A stretch of 64,000 bases of DNA from a virus (lineage: Duplodnaviria > Caudoviricetes), in the IMG/VR virus record IMGVR_UViG_3300027969_000040. One strand, 5' to 3'. This document shows positions 1,058 to 57,480 of the stretch, in pieces. Position numbers and translations under genes: made by a program. Position 1 is the stretch's first letter, and each line of letters starts with the position of its first letter. The notes beneath the pieces are model-generated. The model saw only the letters and a list, made by a program, of their open reading frames with translations. It ran no database searches and had not been told where the DNA came from.

Positions 1058-4000
1058 TATTCTTGATCTCGCCAACGTTTCTCTGCAGAGTCCCAATATC
1101 TTCCACCAACTACATTTTTGGTTTCTGTTTTAGATTCTTCATATGGTTGCTCTTGTGTATCAGGCTCATTGGTAGCCGGTACAACTTGATCGTAGTCTTT
1201 CATGGTCAGAGTATTACCATTACTACTTAGATTTACTAGTTTTTCTGCCACATCGTGCAAATCTAAGTCAGTTTTTGCATCTTCTCTAGCAAATTCCATT
1301 ACACGCAATAGCATAGGAACATCCATGGTGACAGTATCAGTTGGGTTAGATGATGCTTCTTCGTCTAAGTTTATTAATTTTAGATAGTGGCGCTGTAGAT
1401 ATTCTTTAGCCCATTTTGCATCATCAAATAATGGACCAACACGTACACCTGAATGATTTAACACTTCAAATCTTTCGCCCTTGCTACCGTCCGGTCTCAT
1501 GATATTAACTTTACGTACACGCGGTCTGCCAGATTTAATTTCTTCGCCCTCAGGAATCATACCATTGCGGGCACTGTCTTCTAATTCTAAGTATGCAGCC
1601 TTGGCTTTTTGATAGTTGGTCTCGTCACCAATTTTATCGTAATGTTGCATCAGGTCGTGCAGTCGATCTGCTTCTTTAATATAATCGCGCATGCTCATTT
1701 TAGCAGGTTCGGCAGATTCGTTTTTATCTTGCCACCAGTAATTACCGTTAACAGGTTTTGATTTAGGCAACGATGGTGTTTTATTCAACATACGGCTACG
1801 TGCAGCTAGCGCCATTTTTTTTAATGTTTCTGGATCTTTGCCACTTAGATTAGGATGAGTGGAAGACTGGAAACGTTTAATCCATGTGTCTGGGGAATCG
1901 TTTGCAGTTAGTTTACCTTCGTCTATTTGTTGTGCTAGTATGCGTTCGACTTGTTTAATCCAGCTATTTAAATTATTCGATTCAATACCTTGTGCATTGT
2001 TTCCAACCATGCCTGCAACAGAATTAATAGCATCACTTACACGATCAGACCCATATTTTAGTAAATCTGGTCGTTTTTCTGTAATGCCCTTAACAATGGC
2101 ACTTATAACAGAACTATTCGATACGCCCTCCGCCACACCTTGCTCTTTAACCAAACGTAATGCTGTAGCAGGTAGATTGTTGGCTTGCCCGCCATCGTCT
2201 AGGTCAATGTAATAGGTTTTTGGGGCACCTTTAAAGGCACCGTGCTTAATTTCTCTAATCCAACCGGTCTTACCAGCGTGTTCGCCTTTGACAACTTTTA
2301 CCTTCTTGGCTAGCCCCTTGCCTTCCGCCACACCTTGCTTGTCAATACTTCCCCGTATACCGCATTTAGCACAATGATATTGTGTTAGCGTTGGGTGTTC
2401 TTTTTTCTTTACAGGACCATGGCAATGTGGGCAGGTACCTGTGGCCATTGCCTTGACTTCTTTACTCATATCTTCTTCGGAGCCTTCCGCCACACCTTCA
2501 TTAGGTTTACAGTTGCGAACCTGGCCGCCATTCTTACCTTTCTTAGTACCTACTGCATGTTTGCCTGGCCAGCAACGAGTAAATCCGTTGCTATCTTTGG
2601 CACCTTTCTTAATCTCATTCAAGTTGCCGTGTGTTTGACACATGCCGCAGTCTTCACACACCATTTCCATCTCTACTGATTCGTTGTGTTTTTTCTTGCC
2701 AGCACAATGTGCTCGTTGGCTGAACCCTTTGGGGTGACTACAGTTGATACTGTTCTTGTATTTTTGGCTCCACTCCTCTGCCACACCTTGTGCCGGTGCT
2801 TGAGGTTTAGATTGATTTTTTTGTACCCATTGCATTACTTGAGTTTTTAGTTGTAATGGAACTGTATCTTGTTTACCGTTTACAAAATCTACTACATCTA
2901 TAGTTCTGTTACCAAATGGGCCTTCGCCAGCGGAGTTAGTGCCTACAATACCTTGTGCATTTTGTCCAGCCGTACCTAAGTCTGGATCAGACCCTTTTGC
3001 TAAAAATTTATCAAGTCCTAATGTACTAGCAGTATTAGGTGGCACCCAAGACATTGATGTAAAAGTTACATTGTCGTATGCTGTATGCCCGCCCAATCCT
3101 TCACTTCCTCTATAATCTGCTTTAATATAATTACCGTCGGCCATTTTGAAATAAACTGTGCGAGGTGCAAACATATCTAATTCATTCAATTGATCCTTTG
3201 CTACACTGTGCTCGCCGGTACCTATATAGTGATGGTCGTGTACTTTATAACCTTTTTTGCGATAGTGAGCAATGGCAGATTTAATTGCCTTATCACGATT
3301 GTCGCTAGTTACCTTCACAGTTTTTTGTATAGTTTCTTTACGTTTGCTAACCATTGCGTGATTAGGGTCTGTAACAGTTAAACTAATACGATGTACAGAT
3401 TTTGTGCTTTCGTCAACTTGATCTCCGTTGCCAACTAATCTAATTAGATGCCCTTGTTTAAAATATGTTGGGTGATACATTACTACATTAAAGGTACTAT
3501 CGTTGTTATAGGAAATCTTTACATCACCTCCAGCAGCAACAATCTTACTTTTTATATCTTTTGTTGCTTGTGCATTTTTATTGGGCCCATACATAGCATT
3601 AGCCATTTGGTCTGCTAATTGTAATAGATATTGTTTCTCGTCTCCGCCACCTTCATCTGGTGCAAACTCTTTTAATTTTCTTTGAGCATCAATTTGTGCC
3701 AATTGCTTTCTAGCAGACTGATCTCCGGAGTGGGCGCGATCTATTAGCTTTGCCATGTCAGCTTTTAATTTGGCTATTTTATTATCGATTGAATTAATAT
3801 TACCTTTGACAACGTCATCTGGTACTGCGACTTTTGCACTGCCTGGGAAGTCTCTAAATTCGCCTTCGTTCATTACTCTGCTACTTAAATCGTTAATTTG
3901 AATTTCAAGATTTGCAATTTGTTTTTGATCTTTAACTTTAACTGGATATGGTTTTCCATTCCACTCAAACTGTTGCGCACCTTGTTTAGCGGCTGCAAGA

Positions 4001-4767
4001 TGTGCTTTTGCAAAAGCCAATGCTTCCTCTGTTGTACCAAATACTTTACTGGCTAGCCATTTAAGAGTTTTGTAAGTTATTACTCCACCTAATACTGCCA
4101 TTGCTCCTGTCAGCAATCCTGCACCTAGTGCCGGAGCAAATAAAGCAATACCCCCGCCAGAGCTTGCCATAGTAACACCAGCAGTGGAACCAGTTAATCC
4201 TGCCCCTACACCAACCCCTAATGCTTTGTTTAACTCGGTGTCGTGCATAAACGAATCTGCATTTCTGAGTTTATTTCCTAGTTCACTTCCCGGAAATAAT
4301 GCTTCGTTTACTTCAGACTCGTTCTTAACAAGTCCCATATCTTCAAGGTACTCAACTGCCTTTAATAAATTGGGTGTTGTTTTTTCTGTAGTCTTACCGT
4401 TATGTGTAATTCTTAATACATTTGTATCGCCGTCGGTACTGATAGTAGCAGTAACTTCTGAATTATCTGGATCTATGTAACTTAATATTTCTTTAAATTT
4501 ATCTTCTATAGTTTCTTTTTCTTTTTTATCAGCGTAAGTTCCGTTTTTACCTCTGATTAAATTGTGTACTTTGCCTTCTTTGTCGGTTCTGGTCATTGCG
4601 GCAGGTTTAAGGAATGCAGCATCGTATGCAACAGCCGTTCCGAATTTCTTTTCCAATGTGGAAAGGTCGTATGCTTTTGCTTCTTTGTCTTCGGTTTGAA
4701 TTGTTTTATTTTTAATCTGACCTAAAAATTCACGATCGTCATCGCTGAACATATCTAATACATACAT
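1057..4767 (-). CDS. 1236-aa mosaic protein of short modules (KOW-like, Cys/Zn ribbons, helical modules) joined at xxE sites
   Basis: Four GVAE linkers; CxxC pairs (CEDCGMC, CPHCH..CAKC); KOW-like KVKVVKGEHAGKTG. Confidence 0.85.
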   Translation of the reverse strand: MYVLDMFSDDDREFLGQIKNKTIQTEDKEAKAYDLSTLEKKFGTAVAYDAAFLKPAAMTRTDKEGKVHNLIRGKNGTYADKKEKETIEDKFKEILSYIDPDNSEVTATISTDGDTNVLRITHNGKTTEKTTPNLLKAVEYLEDMGLVKNESEVNEALFPGSELGNKLRNADSFMHDTELNKALGVGVGAGLTGSTAGVTMASSGGGIALFAPALGAGLLTGAMAVLGGVITYKTLKWLASKVFGTTEEALAFAKAHLAAAKQGAQQFEWNGKPYPVKVKDQKQIANLEIQINDLSSRVMNEGEFRDFPGSAKVAVPDDVVKGNINSIDNKIAKLKADMAKLIDRAHSGDQSARKQLAQIDAQRKLKEFAPDEGGGDEKQYLLQLADQMANAMYGPNKNAQATKDIKSKIVAAGGDVKISYNNDSTFNVVMYHPTYFKQGHLIRLVGNGDQVDESTKSVHRISLTVTDPNHAMVSKRKETIQKTVKVTSDNRDKAIKSAIAHYRKKGYKVHDHHYIGTGEHSVAKDQLNELDMFAPRTVYFKMADGNYIKADYRGSEGLGGHTAYDNVTFTSMSWVPPNTASTLGLDKFLAKGSDPDLGTAGQNAQGIVGTNSAGEGPFGNRTIDVVDFVNGKQDTVPLQLKTQVMQWVQKNQSKPQAPAQGVAEEWSQKYKNSINCSHPKGFSQRAHCAGKKKHNESVEMEMVCEDCGMCQTHGNLNEIKKGAKDSNGFTRCWPGKHAVGTKKGKNGGQVRNCKPNEGVAEGSEEDMSKEVKAMATGTCPHCHGPVKKKEHPTLTQYHCAKCGIRGSIDKQGVAEGKGLAKKVKVVKGEHAGKTGWIREIKHGAFKGAPKTYYIDLDDGGQANNLPATALRLVKEQGVAEGVSNSSVISAIVKGITEKRPDLLKYGSDRVSDAINSVAGMVGNNAQGIESNNLNSWIKQVERILAQQIDEGKLTANDSPDTWIKRFQSSTHPNLSGKDPETLKKMALAARSRMLNKTPSLPKSKPVNGNYWWQDKNESAEPAKMSMRDYIKEADRLHDLMQHYDKIGDETNYQKAKAAYLELEDSARNGMIPEGEEIKSGRPRVRKVNIMRPDGSKGERFEVLNHSGVRVGPLFDDAKWAKEYLQRHYLKLINLDEEASSNPTDTVTMDVPMLLRVMEFAREDAKTDLDLHDVAEKLVNLSSNGNTLTMKDYDQVVPATNEPDTQEQPYEESKTETKNVVGGRYWDSAEKRWRDQE
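2128..2790 (-). repeat. Dispersed repeat (C/G)AAGGTGTGGC(G/A)GA(A/G)G encoding (Q/E)GVAE
   Basis: Copies at 2128-2142, 2322-2337, 2483-2498 and 2776-2790; degenerate copy at 5751-5766 (QSVTE). Confidence 0.9.
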
Positions 4768-4768
4768 A

Positions 4769-5308
4769 TTAACCTCCCTGCCCTGACATATTTTGTTTTA
4801 CTGTGTTTGTAAGTGTCCCCAATTGGCTTGACGATAAGCCAGCATTGGCTAACATCTGTGCCATTGCTGCTAATCCTTGTGGATTAATTGGCGGTGTTGG
4901 TTTTGGTGTTTGCCCCGGCGTAGAACCAACTGTTGTTGTTTTTGGTGCAGTGTTGGCCGCAGTAGTAGGCGGTGTAGTCTGACCAGCAGATGTAGTTGGT
5001 GCAGCTTGCCCTGCAGATGCAGACGGTGTAGTTTGAGCTTGCCCTGCAGATTGCCCTACAGTTCCGACTACACCTACTTCGTTTATACTTCTTACATATT
5101 TTTGGTCTTTAAAATATTCAACCAATGAATCAACACTATCGTGATAATCGATTCCTGATTCAAGCAAATCATTTACAGATTGTTTAATGAAATGTCTTTC
5201 ATTCTCAGTTATACCGCCGTATACATTTTTATCTTCAACGATATCGTTTACACGTACCAGGCCTTCTACAATCCTGTTTAATAGTGTTGATGAAATAGAG
5301 TCAATCAT
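4769..5308 (-). CDS. Hypothetical protein with Thr/Pro/Ala-rich C-terminal linker
   Basis: 179-aa ORF in the operon; IVE/ITE/INE junction motifs. Confidence 0.8.
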   Translation of the reverse strand: MIDSISSTLLNRIVEGLVRVNDIVEDKNVYGGITENERHFIKQSVNDLLESGIDYHDSVDSLVEYFKDQKYVRSINEVGVVGTVGQSAGQAQTTPSASAGQAAPTTSAGQTTPPTTAANTAPKTTTVGSTPGQTPKPTPPINPQGLAAMAQMLANAGLSSSQLGTLTNTVKQNMSGQGG

Positions 5309-6267
5309 TTGCTGGTCCTTGACTTGGGACGGCCACCAAACAATTCACCTGCTTGTTGTCCACCCATATTAGTTGCCATACCACCACTTGAACTAGCACC
5401 TGCCGTTGATTCAAATTCTGCATCTGGCGCATCTACATCGCCTATTTTACTAGAGTTCATTGTGATGCCTTTATATTTAATTTTTAGATTAGAATACATG
5501 TTACCACGTTGTCTTAAAAAATTACTTAACCATTTGTCGGCCTGTATAATAACTTGTTTTGGTGCGCCTCCCCAATTATATTTTTCTATCATTGGTGTTA
5601 GATCAAATTCCTTATACTCACCACCCATTAGCATAGATGCCATTAATTTATTTGGATCGGTCTGATCGGCTGCTTTTGCTAACCCAGGTGCTGCTGCTAC
5701 TGCTGCGGCTGCACCAGCGCGCCCAAGGAATCCTCTACGGTTCATATCAGCTTCCGTCACACTTTGCTGACCTAATACAGGACCAACTTGAATACCTTTG
5801 CTTGCTAGTAAATCTTTAATACGACCGGCTCTGTTACTAGCGGCTTCATACTCTTGCTGTGTTTTGGCATTTTTTACAGCCATGACTGCTTGTTGGTATT
5901 GTTGTTTCCACTCATTAGCACCGGGTGTTTTGATAGAGGAGCCGTCTGGATAATCGCCTTCCTCTACAATGCCAAGAGTATTCATGTTCTCGTCGGCAAC
6001 TTTGTTCTCCATATGAGAACCTAATTCGTATTCTAACCATTCTTTTACATTACGTAAGTAATCATTCGCCAAAGTTATCTTTTCGCTTGCCCACCCCGGT
6101 ATACCATCTTCCTCGCTGATTTTTTTAAGCATTCTATGCAGTTCCATGGCATTTGATGCAGAATGATAACATTCTTCTCTGGCCATTTGTACTTCGTGGT
6201 CCATATGCATAGACTCAGCTGCTTGGACAATTGGGTGTTTTTCGGGTATAAAATCTATAGGTTTCAT
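5305..6267 (-). CDS. Mosaic protein with an internal twin-arginine signal-like segment
   Basis: 320 aa; DHEVQMAR..WASEKITLANDYL module; internal SVTE-ADMNRRGFLGRAGAAAAVAAAPGLAKA. Confidence 0.85.
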   Translation of the reverse strand: MKPIDFIPEKHPIVQAAESMHMDHEVQMAREECYHSASNAMELHRMLKKISEEDGIPGWASEKITLANDYLRNVKEWLEYELGSHMENKVADENMNTLGIVEEGDYPDGSSIKTPGANEWKQQYQQAVMAVKNAKTQQEYEAASNRAGRIKDLLASKGIQVGPVLGQQSVTEADMNRRGFLGRAGAAAAVAAAPGLAKAADQTDPNKLMASMLMGGEYKEFDLTPMIEKYNWGGAPKQVIIQADKWLSNFLRQRGNMYSNLKIKYKGITMNSSKIGDVDAPDAEFESTAGASSSGGMATNMGGQQAGELFGGRPKSRTSK

Positions 6268-6304: not shown

Positions 6305-7903
6305 TTAATACGCACTGTTGGACTTGATGATAACTTGATCAATGGGTAAACTAGCCACTGAGTTATTAAGGCTAGTCCAGGACTCGATTCCTGTATTCTT
6401 ATTAGGGGTAAACAATACTTTATCGTTTTTAACTTCACCAGTAGCTATTCCTACTGGTTTACCTTTCCACCAAACAACATCGCCGCTTTTAACACGCTCT
6501 GCTTTATTCAAAAATTGGTCTGGTGGTGTAATGCCTTCTGTTACTTTATTTTCTAACTTATTAAAGAATATTACAATTGCTTGTTTTACATCTTCGGCAG
6601 CATATAATCTATCATTAGTGATAGCCAATCGTTTAGAAAACAGATCTCCGTCTTCTTTACTTTTAGCATATTCCTTTGCTGCAAGACTAGAAAAATGTGC
6701 TCGCGCTGCATATAGTCTACGTAATTCCATCCATTCTTCTTCGTCTGGCGTGGGTCTTGGATCGTGTTGCAGCAAAGACAATCGCTTCATTCTTTCTGCA
6801 TATTTTACCAACTCCACAGCTACTTTTTCTGCAAGGTGACCTTCGTATGGTTTTTCTTGTATAGGGGTATAGTCATTGACATCGTCCCAATTTGGATCTA
6901 CAAGATCGCCTTCGGGATCGAGCTCGGAGCGTGACAAGTATTGAACAAGTTTTTTTGCTAGATTGCTGTTGGTATCAGACATTTTTAAAAAGGCAAGGCG
7001 TCCTGCATTCAGCCCCCTTTCTGCAAATAATCGTGCTAACTCTACTAATTCCCTAGTATCTTTTTCAACTTCAGGATCTGACTCGGGGTCTAAGAACGTT
7101 CTTGTAAATTTTATAATTTCGCTGGCATATTTATAAGGTCTGTAGTCTGTTACACGTTGTTTAAAATCTTCTTCTAAGTTAGTTGCAGCGTCAACAACTG
7201 GGTCATATGGTATTTTATTAAAAATATGTACCAACTCAGGGGTTGCTTGCCCGTATAATTGTGTTAAGAATTCTTTACTGGCATTTTCATCTTCCCGCAC
7301 CATATTCCATAACATCCTGCATTCAGTGCCATGGCTAGCATCGTATGTCTTTCCATTGATATTAACCTGTGCTGGTTTTTCTGCTACAACTATTACATAG
7401 CTATGTTTGTCTGCGGTAGTTGATTCTGCAATGGATTTAAATGTTAAGAATGGTTTAAGATCACCAACATTTTTACCAGGCGGTATTCTGGACTTCCTGG
7501 GTGACCCGTCTTTTTTCGGTTTGGGTGTAAATTGTGTATAGACACTATCAACTTCTAGTCGTTGTTTATCTGGTTCGCCTACAGCAAAAATGGCTATTGT
7601 TTTACTAGGATCAAATCCTAATATTCTTGCATAATCTTGAATTTCGTAAGGTTGATTGGCTTCAACAATACGATCGTTATGTACACCTGCGGCATGCATT
7701 AGCTGTACTTTATCAGTAAAGCTAAATGGACTTTTAGGTAGATCTACATTATTACTAGTACCAATGAATACATTATCACGACCAAATTTTCTTTGCAGTT
7801 CGTTAAAAACCGCACTATGCCCTTTATGAAACGGCTGGAACCTTCCTGGGTAAATAACCACAATGTGGGTTGCTTGGGATTCAAAAAGGTCAAATACAAA
7901 CAT
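6305..7903 (-). CDS. HIGH-motif nucleotidyltransferase (cytidylyltransferase/NMNAT-like) fused to extra modules
   Basis: IYPGRFQPFHKGH near the N-terminus; later modules follow NLEE and KVTE junctions. Confidence 0.75.
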   Translation of the reverse strand: MFVFDLFESQATHIVVIYPGRFQPFHKGHSAVFNELQRKFGRDNVFIGTSNNVDLPKSPFSFTDKVQLMHAAGVHNDRIVEANQPYEIQDYARILGFDPSKTIAIFAVGEPDKQRLEVDSVYTQFTPKPKKDGSPRKSRIPPGKNVGDLKPFLTFKSIAESTTADKHSYVIVVAEKPAQVNINGKTYDASHGTECRMLWNMVREDENASKEFLTQLYGQATPELVHIFNKIPYDPVVDAATNLEEDFKQRVTDYRPYKYASEIIKFTRTFLDPESDPEVEKDTRELVELARLFAERGLNAGRLAFLKMSDTNSNLAKKLVQYLSRSELDPEGDLVDPNWDDVNDYTPIQEKPYEGHLAEKVAVELVKYAERMKRLSLLQHDPRPTPDEEEWMELRRLYAARAHFSSLAAKEYAKSKEDGDLFSKRLAITNDRLYAAEDVKQAIVIFFNKLENKVTEGITPPDQFLNKAERVKSGDVVWWKGKPVGIATGEVKNDKVLFTPNKNTGIESWTSLNNSVASLPIDQVIIKSNSAY

Positions 7904-8864: not shown

Positions 8865-9590
8865 CTATTGATTTTTCTGATTGATTATAGTTTGATTTAC
8901 TGACCCAATTAAGGATGGTGATAACATTTTGAGTATATCTAACATCTTAATATCATTAAGATATATGAAGCCGCCTTGAAAATATTTATATCTATCCGAT
9001 AGCCTCTCCAATATAAACTTTGATATTTTTATCTCTCCATCTAAATTTTTTATATAATTTACTAGTGCATGTCGATCCTCAAGTTTGATGAAACCTTCTT
9101 TTAAGCGTACCTTATACGGATGATCACTTTCTTTTTTAGTGATAATAAAACCTTGATCTAACAATTTTTTGTCCGAATCAAATTCTAACAACGAAACCGA
9201 ACTCAATCTAGTTTTATGCTCGCTTAAAATTTCATTAGCTACATTATACAAGTAAGATTCTGAATCTGCAAATACAGTGAAAGAATAATAACTAATTCTA
9301 AATTTTACTTTAACATTGGTTGGTGTTGTATAATATTTGTAAAAGTCTTCTAGTGTTTTTAAACTTGCATTTTGATTTTTGTATCTGACAAATCTGTCTG
9401 TGTTTCTATAATTAAAAGCCTTCACAGTTGATGGTAGTTTATCAGCAGTTTTACAATTAATCAAACATCTTGCACCTTGTAAATTATAAGTTAAACTGTA
9501 ACAAAACTCGTTAAAAAATTTCTTCTTAGTATAAAGAAATCGCAAGTCTCGATTTAGTTTACTCCACTCTGATAAATCCATTTTTGTCAA
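8865..9590 (-). CDS. Hypothetical protein
   Basis: 241-aa ORF overlapping the 3' end of clpA. Confidence 0.75.
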   Translation of the reverse strand: MTKMDLSEWSKLNRDLRFLYTKKKFFNEFCYSLTYNLQGARCLINCKTADKLPSTVKAFNYRNTDRFVRYKNQNASLKTLEDFYKYYTTPTNVKVKFRISYYSFTVFADSESYLYNVANEILSEHKTRLSSVSLLEFDSDKKLLDQGFIITKKESDHPYKVRLKEGFIKLEDRHALVNYIKNLDGEIKISKFILERLSDRYKYFQGGFIYLNDIKMLDILKMLSPSLIGSVNQTIINQKNQ

Positions 9591-11862
9591 CTGATGGTAC
9601 CCCTTCGATCAATAGCTGCATGTTATAGGCAATTACAGTAAAAGTCAAATCTTTTTCCTGGCAATCTACATTAATAATAGATCCGTTTTCCAAATTCTCA
9701 AACAATATTTTTTTACTAATAGGTACTTTAATCAAATCGTTAATTACACGATTCAATGGCCTTGCGCCCATTCTCTTATCAAACCCTTTTTCAACTAGTA
9801 AGTCAACGGCACGTTCAGTTAGACGCAATTTAATTTGTCTATCGGATAGTAAATCATTGATTTCTGACATAAATTTAGCGACAATCTTTTTCATGCTAAA
9901 CTGATCTAATGTTTTAAACTTACATATAGCATCAAGTCTATTTCGAAACTCGGGTTTAAAAAATTCCTTAACTGCCTTATCGTCCTCACCTGTGCGCTCT
10001 AACGATTGACCAAATCCAATGGTATTGCGTTCGTTATCGGCAGCGCCTAGATTACTAGTCATAATTAAAATAGAGTTACGTGCATCGGCTTTTTTACCAT
10101 TGCTACCAGTAATAAATCCTTCATCCATAAATTGCAACAAGATATTTGTTACATCAGGATGAGCTTTTTCAATCTCATCTAATAGGATAATTGAGTTTGG
10201 ATTTTGTTCTAAAGCACTAATTAATAATCCACTGCCAGCTGCTGAATCTTCATATCCAACATACCCAGGAGGTGCACCGATTAACTTAGCCATGCTATGT
10301 TTTTCTTGGTACTCACTCATATCGTAGCGAACCATCTTCATTGACAAATTGGTTGCAAGTAACTTAGCTAATTCAGTTTTTCCAGTACCAGTTGGCCCCA
10401 AGAATAAAAAGCTACCAATTGGTTTGTTAATTGATTTAATACCTGCTTTACTTACGAATATTCGCTCTAACACAGAAGTTACGGCATCCTCTTGACCGTA
10501 CAGCCCTTGGTTTATATTGATTTCTAAATTAACAAGGCTATTAGTATTATCACTGCCAATTTGATCAACTGGTATCTTAGTAGCGCGACTTAGTGCTTCT
10601 ACAATCTGCGATTTGCCTAATACAAAGTCTGAATCTTGCTTGATTTGTATTTTTTGTTTAGCACATGCAGTATCCATTAAGTCTATTGCTTTGTCTGGCA
10701 GCTTTTTGTCAGGTTGATATCTAATGCTATAATCAACGGCGGCATCAATTGATTCATCTGAAATTTTAATGTTATGGAATTTTTCAAAATTTAATCTTAT
10801 ACCTTTAAGTATAAGTTTCGAATCACTTGCACTAGGTTCGTCTACAGTTAATCGTTGAAATCTACGCATCAATGCTCGATCTTTTTCGAAGCTTTGTACA
10901 TATTCATCCCATGTAGTAGATGCGATAACTTTAATCTTGCCCTTAGTTAATGCAGGTTTAATCATGTTACTAAAGTCGACCGAGCTAGAAGAGCCACCGC
11001 CAGCGCCACGCATCTGATGTGCCTCGTCGATGAATAGTATAGTTTTTTCTTTCATTATCAATGCTTTGATAACATTCTGAAATTTTTCTTCAAACTCGCC
11101 TCTATACTTACTTCCAGCTAATAAGCTACCTATATCTAAGTTATACACAGTATATGACTTTAGATATTCTGGTACATTACCGTCTACTATATTTTTAGCA
11201 AGTCCTTCTGCTAACATTGTTTTACCAACGCCCGGATCACCAACTAATAGGATATTGGCTTTATTACGTTTAGCCAATATATGAGACATTTCTGTTAGTT
11301 CAAACTCTCGTCCAATAATAGGATCAAGTTCACCTTTCTTGGCCAAGTTGTTCAGATTTGTACAAAACTCATCTAACATTTCTTCGGCACGCTCTGCATT
11401 TATATTTGGAGAATTTAAATCCGACTCGGTATTAAATTTTTTGTATAATTCCATTAGGGTTGCACGATCAATTCCGTACTTTAACATAAAATAGAATGCA
11501 TAGCTATTTGATTCCATTGAAATGCTTAATACCAAGTCAATGATTTTAATACGGTTAGATCCGTGAAACAACACTTGTGTTAGTGCTCTATTAAATACAC
11601 GTTCTAACGTTTGTGTTTTTCTTGGAGTATGCGATTCTTCGACTACTAAATGTGTTTGTGCATTTAAATAATGGCTTAGTTCACCCACCAGGCCGTTGAC
11701 ATCAAAATTTAATTTTATCAATATCTTCTTAAAAGGACTATATTGAAAAATAGCCAATGCTAGATGTTCTAAAGTTACATATTCATGTTTAAGCGACTTA
11801 GCAGCCTCGCTGGCTTTAAGTATAATTTCTTCAATCTCTGCATTTGGTCTCATTGACGACAT
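9559..11862 (-). CDS. clpA: ATP-dependent Clp protease ATPase subunit, ClpA-type
   Basis: Clp N-domain (HEYVTLEHL); Walker A motifs GDPGVGKT and GPTGTGKT; Walker B motifs FIDEAH and LLDEIEK; IGF loop (TIGFG); no ClpB middle domain. Confidence 0.92.
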   Translation of the reverse strand: MSSMRPNAEIEEIILKASEAAKSLKHEYVTLEHLALAIFQYSPFKKILIKLNFDVNGLVGELSHYLNAQTHLVVEESHTPRKTQTLERVFNRALTQVLFHGSNRIKIIDLVLSISMESNSYAFYFMLKYGIDRATLMELYKKFNTESDLNSPNINAERAEEMLDEFCTNLNNLAKKGELDPIIGREFELTEMSHILAKRNKANILLVGDPGVGKTMLAEGLAKNIVDGNVPEYLKSYTVYNLDIGSLLAGSKYRGEFEEKFQNVIKALIMKEKTILFIDEAHQMRGAGGGSSSSVDFSNMIKPALTKGKIKVIASTTWDEYVQSFEKDRALMRRFQRLTVDEPSASDSKLILKGIRLNFEKFHNIKISDESIDAAVDYSIRYQPDKKLPDKAIDLMDTACAKQKIQIKQDSDFVLGKSQIVEALSRATKIPVDQIGSDNTNSLVNLEININQGLYGQEDAVTSVLERIFVSKAGIKSINKPIGSFLFLGPTGTGKTELAKLLATNLSMKMVRYDMSEYQEKHSMAKLIGAPPGYVGYEDSAAGSGLLISALEQNPNSIILLDEIEKAHPDVTNILLQFMDEGFITGSNGKKADARNSILIMTSNLGAADNERNTIGFGQSLERTGEDDKAVKEFFKPEFRNRLDAICKFKTLDQFSMKKIVAKFMSEINDLLSDRQIKLRLTERAVDLLVEKGFDKRMGARPLNRVINDLIKVPISKKILFENLENGSIINVDCQEKDLTFTVIAYNMQLLIEGVPSVDKNGFIRVE

Positions 11863-11872
11863 TACAGTTCCT

Positions 11873-12724
11873 TTATGTTAATAAATTTTCTAATGCTTTA
11901 TGCTGATCCGATGTAATAGTCGACGGAACAGTTAGTGAAATTTCAACATGCAGATCGCCACGTATAGGTTGATTTACATCCCATAACCCTTGAGATGGAA
12001 TTCTAAATTTAGAATTATTTTGTGTACCCGGCGGGATTCTAATTTCAAATTGTGTATGATCTAACCCTGACACCATTGCCTTTGTTCCTACTACAGCATC
12101 GATGCAATTAACACTTATTGTTTTTATTAGATTCAACCCGGCTATTACAAATTCAGGATGCTGTCTTATTCGTAAATCAACTAGTAAGTCTCCAGGCGGC
12201 AAGTTAGAATGTGAAGTATCACCTTTTCCTTGGTATCTAATTTGCATACCAGTTTGAACTCCCCTGGGGATTTCAATCTCTACAGTTTTATTTGATCCAT
12301 TTGAATTTCGGACATTAATATGATGCGATTGAGTGTTAAGTGTTGATTCTAAATCTAGTTCAATTCCTACCCTTAGGTCTGCATTTTTAGCAGGTTGCCC
12401 GTGATGTCTGAAATTAAATCCTCCTGCAAATTGCCGGAATAGATCATCAATACCACCACCGCCACCACCAAAACTAAAGTGATGAAAATTACCACCGCCA
12501 CCACCTTGCCCAAACATTTTTTGTTGTTCCCATTGGGCACGTTTTTGTGGATCGGATAGTGTTGAGTATGCTTCCTGTATCTCTTGGAATTTATTTTGAT
12601 CACCACCCCGGTCTGGATGATGCTGCATAGCCAACTTTTTATACGCTTTCTTAATCTCGTCATCGCTCGCGTTAGCGTTGACACCTAAAATATTAAAATA
12701 ATCAGTCATAGTTATATAGTACAA
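11873..12724 (-). CDS. dnaJ: DnaJ-class co-chaperone, type II/CbpA-like (no Zn finger)
   Basis: J-domain with HPD (HHPDRGG), G/F-rich linker, C-terminal substrate-binding domain. Confidence 0.92.
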   Translation of the reverse strand: MYYITMTDYFNILGVNANASDDEIKKAYKKLAMQHHPDRGGDQNKFQEIQEAYSTLSDPQKRAQWEQQKMFGQGGGGGNFHHFSFGGGGGGIDDLFRQFAGGFNFRHHGQPAKNADLRVGIELDLESTLNTQSHHINVRNSNGSNKTVEIEIPRGVQTGMQIRYQGKGDTSHSNLPPGDLLVDLRIRQHPEFVIAGLNLIKTISVNCIDAVVGTKAMVSGLDHTQFEIRIPPGTQNNSKFRIPSQGLWDVNQPIRGDLHVEISLTVPSTITSDQHKALENLLT

Positions 12725-47357: not shown

Positions 47358-48239
47358 TCAGAAATTGTGTTCCATTCCTAAACCAAATTTGGTTGTTGTA
47401 GATGCTGTATCTTCCTTGACATAACGAGCATGAATCATAGTACGCTTGCTTAGGTTATAAGTAGCACCCAGGTCATAAGCCTTAGCACCAGATTTTTCAC
47501 CATAGCTAGCAAGAGCCACAAATGAACCTACTGGATGACTAACACCAATTGTTTTACCAGTTGATGTTACGCCTACAACTTTGTCATCTGAGTATAAACC
47601 AAATACGGTAGTACCTGTTTTAGCAATGCTATATCTTGCACCAGCAATGGTTGTGGTGCTTGTCGTACCGTTATCAAAATATGCTACAGTAGCAGCCATT
47701 GAACCGCGAATGAATTCAATACTACCTGCTTGTGCATTAGTAACACCTGCTGCTTCGCTGTTGCTATTTTGATAGTTAACAGACAAACCAGGCATGACTG
47801 TTGCAGAAACAAACAGTGCATTTTGTAAACGTGAACCTTGAGCAGTATGGATAGTAGTTACACTAGAGCCATATACATTAGCCATTGCGTCATAGTTATC
47901 AAGTGTACGTGCAATAGCATGTTTATCACGGCCAAGACTAACTGAACCCATGGCATTTGATACACCTACTAGAGCAGTTCTATCACCTAGTGTAGTTGCT
48001 GCTGGAGCATCTGTGCCAATACCAGTTTCGATTGTAAAGTTAGCAGATAGTCCGCCACTTAGTGCTTCAGTGCCTTTGAATCCCAAACGGCTTGAATCGT
48101 TGGTTAATGCTGTCACTGCGTCTGCAGATCCGACTTTAGTTGATTCTTCGTAGACCCGTAGTTTACCGTAAACGGTGACCTGTGCGGATGCTACAACTGA
48201 TGCAGCGGCTATCATTGCCGCAATTGCGATTTTCTTCAT
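47358..48239 (-). CDS. Gram-negative general porin (betaproteobacterial/Neisseria-type)
   Basis: Signal peptide MKKIAIAAMIAAASVVASA; VTVYGKL, SRLGFKGTEAL.GGLSA.F..ETG; C-terminal G.EH.F. Confidence 0.9.
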   Translation of the reverse strand: MKKIAIAAMIAAASVVASAQVTVYGKLRVYEESTKVGSADAVTALTNDSSRLGFKGTEALSGGLSANFTIETGIGTDAPAATTLGDRTALVGVSNAMGSVSLGRDKHAIARTLDNYDAMANVYGSSVTTIHTAQGSRLQNALFVSATVMPGLSVNYQNSNSEAAGVTNAQAGSIEFIRGSMAATVAYFDNGTTSTTTIAGARYSIAKTGTTVFGLYSDDKVVGVTSTGKTIGVSHPVGSFVALASYGEKSGAKAYDLGATYNLSKRTMIHARYVKEDTASTTTKFGLGMEHNF

Positions 48240-48371
48240 ATTTAATTTCCTTTTGTTAATCAATCTTGCGGATGCAAGATCTTAAGCACATTTTACTGTA
48301 CTAGTAGTATTTAAGCAAATAATAGTTTTCCAAAAGAAAATATTTGATACTTTTGGTATTATATATAGCTT

Positions 48372-56635: not shown

Positions 56636-56687
56636 ACCAATATTTACCCGTCTAATTAATTTTAAATATTACACTTATGTTACATAA

Positions 56688-56711
56688 GAAGAAACCCGCC
56701 GAAGCGGGTCC
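56688..56711 (-). terminator. Intrinsic terminator of the tmRNA gene
   Basis: ACCCGC-TTCG-GCGGGT-TTCTTCTT on the minus strand. Confidence 0.85.
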
Positions 56712-56755
56712 TTGCTATTTTTGGTGACAAGGTATAACTACCTCGGGTCTAGCAA

Positions 56756-56857
56756 TCAAGCGGCTAGTAAAACTGCTGAGTCATTAGCGGCTTGACGTCC
56801 AAAACGGAAGTTTTTGCCCATAGTAACTTTTACAGTACCTGTTGTATTTGCGTTTGC
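56756..56857 (-). other. tmRNA tag reading frame ANANTTGTVKVTMGKNFRFGRQAANDSAVLLAA*
   Basis: Translated from the GCA after TAAAT to TGA; 33 sense codons. Confidence 0.75.
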
Positions 56858-57013
56858 ATTTACGGATTTTGCGTCTGCAACCAAGCTTCGTCTTTCTATG
56901 CTATGAGCATAGCGACTAAAGTTACCTTAGTCCTGCGGCTTCTGCATTGCCGAGCTGTCCACTCATTTACTTGTTGCTCTGTCGAAACCAGGGCAGGCCC
57001 ATCAAAAAGAAAC

Positions 57014-57148
57014 TTACCATTTACCAATTGGACAATGTGCAAATGGTATTAAAGTTTTAGCCGGCATGTAACATCCGCACTTGTTGCAAACTTTTCGATC
57101 AGTATCAAAATGCTCACATACTATACAAATTGTGTACTTGTCGTTCAT
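57014..57148 (-). CDS. 44-aa Cys-rich protein inside the tmRNA intervening sequence (MNDKYTICIVCEHFDTDRKVCNKCGCYMPAKTLIPFAHCPIGKW)
   Basis: Manual translation; AAGGA SD; CxxC..CxxCGC..K..CP.GKW pattern (DUF6171-like). Confidence 0.8.
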   Translation of the reverse strand: MNDKYTICIVCEHFDTDRKVCNKCGCYMPAKTLIPFAHCPIGKW

Positions 57149-57243
57149 GAATTCCTTTTTGGTGGACCTGGCGGGAGTCGAACCCGCGTCCAGAACACTT
57201 TTCTCTTTGCTTCATACAGCAATAACTTTTATTTATCTCCAAA

Positions 57244-57480
57244 TCAATGTCTCACAGCAAACATACTGCTGATCATTGCTCTTACTAAAACTAAATCACT
57301 TTCACATGTAACTTCTATAGGTTCATCAAGATCTTCATCATCTTCCCATGCTTCCTTTGGAAACTGTAAAAAAGTAAAGATAGTTCTAAAGGTCACAGTC
57401 CTGCCTTGCGTGTAAGCCAACTCTATCACATCCACTATAGAATTCACCACCTGCTGTGTCTTGAAATCTAGCGGAGTCAT
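57244..57480 (-). CDS. Hypothetical protein
   Basis: 78-aa ORF. Confidence 0.65.
   Translation of the reverse strand: MTPLDFKTQQVVNSIVDVIELAYTQGRTVTFRTIFTFLQFPKEAWEDDEDLDEPIEVTCESDLVLVRAMISSMFAVRH

Follow-up and report, generated by a model that had tools for sequence, protein, structure and literature searches.

Modular evolution of phage genomes by way of conserved linkers has long been proposed, and is documented for the intergenic promoter early stem-loop (PeSL) elements and for the motifs of adhesin genes. The same linker principle appears to operate inside a reading frame in the 64,000-nucleotide (nt) stretch of DNA analysed here (IMG/VR record IMGVR_UViG_3300027969_000040, Duplodnaviria, Caudoviricetes; hereafter the window), where a word of about 17-18 nt recurs within a modular 'polyprotein' gene, P0001 (1057-4767, minus strand). 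The consensus of the word, CAA GGT GTG GCG GAA GGC, encodes the peptide QGVAE(G). The repeat is probably a dual-coded inter-module linker in a cargo polyprotein that belongs to an uncultured, T4-like jumbo phage of fresh water, with one 18-nt word serving as recombination joint and as probable protease site. No published description of this linker system was found in the literature; full-text matches for the linker peptide were to alpha-synuclein and unrelated papers.

The closest described elements are the PeSLs of T4-type phages, in which short conserved linkers flank unrelated cassettes (Arbiol et al. 2010, PMC2839356; PMC4122927). The PeSL marks where close strains have gained, lost or replaced material, as the word does here when the window is compared with the related contigs L081, L003 and L040. 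The phage's own recombination system was proposed to act on PeSLs, and the authors themselves draw a comparison with integrons (PMC2839356). PeSLs, however, lie between genes, span about 100 bp that include a promoter and a terminator (early promoter, stem-loop and Shine-Dalgarno sequence), and move whole open reading frames (ORFs), whereas the joint described here is 17-18 nt long, lies within an ORF, keeps the frame, moves protein modules and probably encodes a peptide signal as well. Mini-circles have been demonstrated for PeSLs, while the present system is known from assembled sequences alone. A second likeness is to the T-even adhesins, where, in the account of PMC3157838 (citing Tetart et al. 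1996, 1998), motifs within the ORF (the glycine-rich motifs of gp38 and the His boxes of gp37) separate variable segments, and genetic exchanges occur within or near these conserved motifs. According to the same account, the glycine-rich motifs make up the structural core of one domain, in a fixed order; the linker described here instead joins independent, unrelated domains that vary in order and number, and it resembles a protease site.

A pattern search located the word on the minus strand at 2127-2142, 2322-2337, 2484-2499 and 2775-2790, with a variant carrying two mismatches at 5751-5766. These five matches compare with 0.09 expected from dinucleotide-preserving shuffles, and an independent repeat finder returned the same five copies (spacings 195, 162, 291 and 2976 nt), which confirms the four in-frame copies and the variant described in a first-pass annotation made from the sequence alone. 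By the ORF list and its translation, P0001 encodes 1236 amino acids (aa) with a conserved N- and C-terminal backbone and a central cassette array; the four main copies are all in frame and place [Q/E]GVAE at aa 660-664, 757-761, 811-815 and 876-880. Linker 1 (PAQGVAE↓EW, the arrow marking the predicted cleavage position; 2773-2790, minus strand; CAAGGTGTGGCAGAGGAG) is the most degenerate of the four. Linker 2 (PNEGVAE↓GS; 2482-2499, minus; GAAGGTGTGGCGGAAGGC) and linker 4 (KEQGVAE↓GV; 2125-2142, minus; CAAGGTGTGGCGGAGGGC) lie on either side of linker 3 (DKQGVAE↓GK; 2320-2337, minus; CAAGGTGTGGCGGAAGGC), which is identical to the 18-nt consensus. The earlier statement that the synonymous positions of the copies are identical holds for the most part, the exceptions being GCA for GCG in one copy and GAG for GAA in two; one main copy also opens with GAA (Glu) rather than CAA. 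GTG and GCG are indeed unfavoured, at 11% of the Val codons and 5% of the Ala codons in 44 long ORFs of the window. Given the peptide, the probability of drawing GGT four times, GTG four times and GCG at least three times is about 2e-9. A tRNA search of the window found no tRNA that would account for the rare codons.

The three spacers between the linkers are unrelated to one another, as had been noted, and represent three separate cassette families: M1 (2485-2775, minus; aa 665-761), M2 (2323-2484, minus; aa 762-815) and M3 (2128-2322, minus; aa 816-880). Comparison with related contigs places the ends of these cassettes at the word. Over 180 nt, M2 and both of its linkers match L040 without a difference (100% nt identity), and L053 and L054 at 98.9%; the identity stops at both linkers. 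M3 has 98% nt identity over 208 nt to L003, bounded by linkers 3 and 4, while M1 is 88% identical to the copy in L003; outside the word, identity falls to random within a few bases. The backbone genes of the contigs that share cassettes are only 66-77% identical to the window (67-72% in the phage with the 100%-identical M2), and near-identical cassettes on such backbones point to recent cassette exchange between diverged phages. L003 lacks M2 and joins M1 straight to M3, so that M2 must have been gained or lost exactly at the repeat. The orthologues P0006 and P0007 are close to P0001 at both ends, with 98% aa identity for residues 1-524 and 88-95% for the C-terminal part, yet they have six GVAE sites with wholly different cassettes. 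L081 is syntenic with the window, with flanks 91-96% identical; its array is replaced over 2143-2815, and homology restarts exactly at linker 4. The gain or loss of modules at the repeat that had been suggested as a check among orthologous genes was thus found in L003 and L081, and module content differs in P0006 and P0007 too.

The variant word belongs to a cassette in a neighbouring gene of 320 aa (5305-6267, minus strand), which has one inserted cassette of 70 aa (5749-5958, minus; GDYPDGSSIKTP...QQSVTE). The 3' end of the cassette is the variant, CAAAGTGTGACGGAAG (5751-5766), a decayed 3' linker (QSVTE), and the insertion follows the residues GIVEE. The L081 orthologue of the gene is 247 aa long and has no cassette. 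The cassette itself has a counterpart (84% nt identity, 218 nt aligned) between two perfect words in the L081 polyprotein gene. As the same cassette family is found in the 320-aa gene of the window and in the polyprotein gene of L081, cassettes also move between genes.

Breakpoints were counted over all loci as the unique ends of blocks of at least 90% identity, and were assigned to the word when within 8 nt of it. By this measure a word marks 46 of 129 block ends, where 1.6 would be expected. The cassettes are numerous and diverse: 150 proteins contain 255 internal cassettes in 183 families (median length 97 aa). The same cassette occurs beside many others, the numbers of different left and right neighbour families being 7 and 7 for M1, 6 and 4 for M2, and 3 and 3 for M3. 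Logan contigs from four other lake metagenomes match the flanks of the array and stop or diverge at 2125-2142, 2320-2340 and 2498. The sides of the joints in these contigs are only 20-24 nt long, which is the repeat itself, and the joints are therefore ambiguous and cannot be taken as signs of deletions or circles. Nor was a lack of contig cover over parts of the gene in other runs counted as evidence.

Linkers for the analysis of silent sites were picked by the peptide GVAE alone from related viral contigs, which gave 152 distinct linkers, and their codons were compared with the background of the same ORFs. The linker DNA is more conserved than the peptide requires. GCG encodes the Ala in 87% of linkers against 7% in the background (binomial p 1.6e-127) and GTG the Val in 82% against 22%; the corresponding values are 93% against 44% for GGT, 80% against 34% for GGC, 95% against 74% for CAA and 87% against 81% for GAA. 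The figures are nearly the same in the 98 linkers whose flanks on both sides are unrelated to those of any other kept linker. Information content is at baseline immediately outside the 17-18 nt, and of the 71 exact 12-mers, 69 are read in the GVAE frame within an open ORF. Peptide variants of the SVAE type are one-step derivatives at the DNA level (AGT), with silent sites half-decayed. Within the cassettes, by comparison, the top codon at invariant Gly, Ala, Val and Ser columns of M1 reaches merely 28-69% among 50 distinct sequences, which indicates that silent sites inside cassettes are saturated. The synonymous conservation that the first-pass annotation had proposed to weigh against codon usage is therefore present in the relatives, where the silent codons of the linker are near-fixed and far above background. 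As module order also differs among the relatives and the blocks of identity end at the word, the reading of the repeat as a recombination joint, first made from the window alone, holds.

It is improbable that the silent sites are fixed for a reason of RNA or translation, with the breakpoints gathered at linkers through selection for intact domains. A candidate pause at the rare GTG and GCG codons, or at the Shine-Dalgarno-like AAGGUG or GAAGG, would on this account let the modules fold or be cut. Such pauses are usually proposed at domain boundaries, no Val codon is rarer here than GTG and no Ala codon rarer than GCG, and AGGUG and AAGG in the word can, as judged by eye, pair with the anti-Shine-Dalgarno sequence. 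The remaining codons of the word, however, are fixed to common ones (GGT, CAA and GAA), and the two Gly residues of the linker are fixed to unlike codons, GGT and GGC, a pattern that codon preference does not predict. GVA tripeptides without a following Glu are at background codon usage (GTG 27%, GCG 8%). Where M1 stands in other contexts, other hydrophobic-x-Glu sites occupy the same module boundary with ordinary codons that vary freely, and no start codon lies downstream of the word at a usable distance. An effect on translation would also leave unexplained why blocks of 100% identity end a few bases from the word on a backbone that is 30% diverged.

For a linker coded at both levels, the following mechanism is proposed. 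As DNA, the 18-nt word in its constant frame would give a patch of identity between otherwise unrelated coding segments, and the general (T4-type) recombination machinery of the phage could join segments at the word by short homology. Whole modules of about 50-150 aa would in this way be swapped, inserted, deleted or duplicated in frame, with exchange between strains, between distant phages and between different genes. We infer that crossovers are placed by homology at the word, not by selection alone, and that no dedicated enzyme is needed. Pfam and PHROGs scans found no integrase, site-specific recombinase, transposase, HNH or GIY-YIG domain in the approximately 50 window ORFs scanned, which include every gene within 10 kb of the array; short-homology general recombination is thus the simplest mechanism, as has been proposed for PeSLs.

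The conservation is nevertheless very sharp, at about 18 nt, and resembles that of a recognition site more than that of a homology patch. At least 120 IMG/VR contigs share the word, general recombination would have only a short tract of 18 bp to work on, and the PeSL authors raised a like possibility for their own elements (PMC2839356). On these grounds the cassettes could be moved by a dedicated enzyme specific for the word CAAGGTGTGGCGGAAGGC, whether a site-specific recombinase, a nuclease of the nicking or homing kind or a copy-choice factor, in which case the array would be a true in-frame 'integron for protein domains' whose word is also read by the head protease. We give this explanation a small chance of being right: the approximately 50 window ORFs scanned encode none of the enzyme domains searched for, some insertions use only word-like or unrelated microhomologies, and the word is confined to the GVAE reading frame, which fits a peptide constraint combined with homology.

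The term 'integron-like', used in the first-pass annotation for an array within one ORF, survives as an analogy only. As in an integron, unrelated cassettes are bounded by a recurring recombination sequence and are shared horizontally between unrelated backbones. However, no IntI integrase, attI or attC was found here; the repeat is a direct 18-nt coding word without inverted-repeat structure, and the cassettes are protein modules in one reading frame, not promoterless genes. With no integrase or recombinase found in the approximately 50 window ORFs scanned, the locus is best regarded as an analogue, not a member, of the integrons. It differs from a shufflon in that the copies are all direct on one strand and no Rci-type recombinase was found. 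Readings of the repeat as an array of the clustered regularly interspaced short palindromic repeat (CRISPR) kind, as a tandem duplication, as a shufflon or as a diversity-generating retroelement do not fit a direct repeat of 17-18 nt that keeps the reading frame and alternates with coding spacers, and enzymes that would go with them were not found; all four were rejected.

The prohead protease of T4 has the consensus [L/I]-x-E. QGVAE↓G plausibly fits a site of this type (hydrophobic-x-Glu), and as a peptide it would be cut by a gp21-type prohead protease, with one gene giving rise to several separate small proteins, probably inside the capsid. In T4, phiKZ, 201phi2-1 and SPN3US, cleavage is C-terminal to Glu (PMC5694885). 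Stand-alone copies of M1 in relatives start with leaders of the MKANEFITE↓KW type, and the T4 capsid-targeting sequence (CTS), MKTYQEFIAE, is removed by the prohead protease (PMC8442874, PMC3012670). Matches to Peptidase_S77, the family of T4 gp21, exceed the curated cut-off in four of five large relatives, including all three that are at least 90% complete. It is a reasonable inference that each cassette has its own predicted cleavage site, given the hydrophobic-x-Glu motif, the CTS-like leaders of stand-alone M1 and the gp21-type protease in relatives. In the 320-aa neighbour of P0001, MKPIDFIPE↓ is a plausible capsid-targeting leader.

The arrangement has a parallel in the internal proteins of T4 (IPI-III and Alt), a diverse set of small cargo proteins with a short common leader that ends in hydrophobic-x-Glu (PMC3012670, PMC8442874, PMC5694885). 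The stand-alone M1 leaders, MKxxEFITE, are near to MKTYQEFIAE, and the relatives carry a protease of the gp21 family. The T4 internal proteins differ in being the products of separate genes that are each cut once, whereas here many modules are encoded by one ORF with repeated sites, and the site is fixed at the DNA level too.

Several observations weigh against the dual-coded linker. Support for recombination, cleavage and packaging is comparative throughout. The length of 17-18 bp is short for homologous recombination; the requirement in T4, as cited in the PeSL paper, is under 50 bp (PMC2839356). If selection keeps only recombinants with intact domains, breakpoints would likewise gather at linkers. 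The share of perfect words is slightly higher at recent breakpoints, at 80% against 64%, a difference that is not significant (p = 0.10). The cassette of the 320-aa gene entered at GIVEE, which only resembles the word, and an indel in the adjacent NMNAT-like gene is bounded by a GAYCAA (DQ) microhomology in place of the QGVAE word, from which it follows that in-frame module indels arise without the word as well. On the side of the peptide, P0001 starts with MYVLDMFSDDD, without a clear CTS-like leader, and the scan for Peptidase_S77 gave no match in the window itself, the protease being known from relatives. Finally, all of the sequences are short-read metagenome assemblies, in which chimeras joined at a recurring in-frame word would still have an open reading frame.

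This last point, together with the breaking of Logan contigs at words, is what could be said for chimeric assemblies joined at the shared repeat, or for local tandem duplication alone, but that explanation is very unlikely: the 17-18-nt word is shorter than assembler k-mers, the same arrangements recur across samples (for example in L022 and L023, and in L048, L049 and L059), P0001 is found on two contigs, silent-site fixation in 152 linkers cannot be an effect of assembly, and three unrelated spacers are not the product of tandem duplication. An assembly artefact is, then, unlikely.

If the repeat is the dual-coded linker proposed, any module between two words is automatically in frame and, if cleavage takes place as suggested, is released as a separate protein. 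This would explain the very diverse sets of cargo proteins in giant freshwater phages. The linker is also a clean natural case of selection, or of recombination-driven homogenisation, at synonymous sites, and it suggests a design rule for multi-cargo phage capsids.

The window is phage DNA, with tail-fibre genes, a tail-assembly chaperone, PhoH, a clamp-loader-like ATPase, MazG and a holin; it also encodes ClpB-like and DnaJ-like chaperones, a porin-like protein and a permuted transfer-messenger RNA (tmRNA). Its relatives are IMG/VR contigs of up to 524 kb, and the runs that contain the sequence are labelled as freshwater, lake or aquatic metagenomes. Exact 12-mers occur one to eight times in each of the large relatives, against none for the reversed control. 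Bacterial matches to the 18-mer are single chance ones in high-GC actinomycetes or fall on short contigs in bins of metagenome-assembled genomes (MAGs), and none of these matches shows a bacterial home for the system. The 8.9-kb contig L288, from the MAG 'uncultured Bacteroidetes' LinL4_bin-1161, has three exact 18-mers, and several other short MAG contigs have one each. The three words on L288 suggest misbinned phage sequence rather than a bacterial copy, and the other MAG contigs may likewise be misbinned phage sequence.

As a whole, the P0001 protein matched no Pfam or PHROG family in profile scans. A nucleotide search of the gene against cultured phages returned zero matches, and a protein search found short module matches in cyanophages and nothing else. 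M1 is Cys/His-rich, with the motif WSxKYKxSINCSHPKGFSQxAHC, and its first part is common to cyanophage proteins. It is widespread: 107 of the approximately 120 homologues listed contain it, at 77-94% aa identity and in varying positions, and in relatives it also occurs as a stand-alone gene with a CTS-like leader. M2 has a zinc-ribbon-like CxxC...CxxC pattern; in the per-module scan its zinc-ribbon Pfam matches were below threshold. M3 is KOW/SH3-like; its Pfam KOW match (E 0.0018) falls short of the family cut-off, and the Foldseek matches, to KOW-domain proteins, were all weak. AlphaFold (AF2) models predict confident, separate folds for M2 and M3, with predicted local distance difference test (pLDDT) values of approximately 88-93 and 86-94, respectively; confidence drops at both flanking linkers, and M1 was left unresolved (pLDDT below 50). 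Cargo domains in the homologues include lysozymes, a zeta-toxin-like kinase, a SutA RNA polymerase-binding domain and domains of unknown function (DUFs).

Upstream of linker 1, the module N2b (2776-3195, minus; aa 525-664, LDMFAPRTVYF...) corresponds in orthologues to a cassette with QGVAE on both sides. Its outer boundary in the window is a fossil linker (3196-3207, minus; aa 521-524), recognised from the junction alignment and the ends of blastn blocks, that reads SVAK (AGT GTA GCA AAG). At the same position L081 has DVAE (GAT GTG GCG GAG), followed by three extra cassettes. A second direct repeat, 32 nt long and 84% identical between its copies (1983-2014 and 2946-2977, minus), encodes G-x-NAQGI. 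One copy lies in the module that directly precedes linker 1 and the other in the module that directly follows linker 4; the repeat may have arisen by an old internal duplication, or it may be a second conserved joint.

Leaders are alike in three of four adjacent genes on the minus strand, namely MFVFDLFE at 7903, MKPIDFIPE at 6267 (the CTS-like N-terminus of the 320-aa protein) and MYVLDMFSD at 4767; from their sequences, these may be a shared N-terminus of the capsid-targeting type. The 320-aa protein also has an internal Tat-type signal, DMNRRGFLGRAGAAA, directly after the SVTE site. The NMNAT-like (CTP_transf_like) gene (6305-7903) has a 60-aa KOW-like insertion (6340-6512, minus) relative to L081. 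A gene of 179 aa has three imperfect tandem repeats of 27-33 nt (4959-5051, minus) that encode a low-complexity segment rich in Thr, Pro, Ala and Gln.

Directly upstream of the polyprotein gene block, 9559-12724 (minus) encodes two proteins, one DnaJ-like (283 aa) and the other a ClpB-like chaperone of the double-AAA+ type that is full-length at 767 aa, and the synteny is kept in L081 and in the P0006 contig. The pair may serve specifically as chaperones of the cargo proteins. The permuted tmRNA gene (56756-57221, minus) matches Rfam RF04321 with 88 bits against a gathering score of 47 and is phage-encoded; the ARAGORN prediction, likewise a permuted tmRNA, spans 56665-57252, and the C-terminal residues of its tag peptide are of the AAVLLAA type. 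The porin-like protein (47358-48263, minus; Pfam Porin_4, E 8.6e-27) is an unusual auxiliary gene product, and its presence hints at a Gram-negative host.

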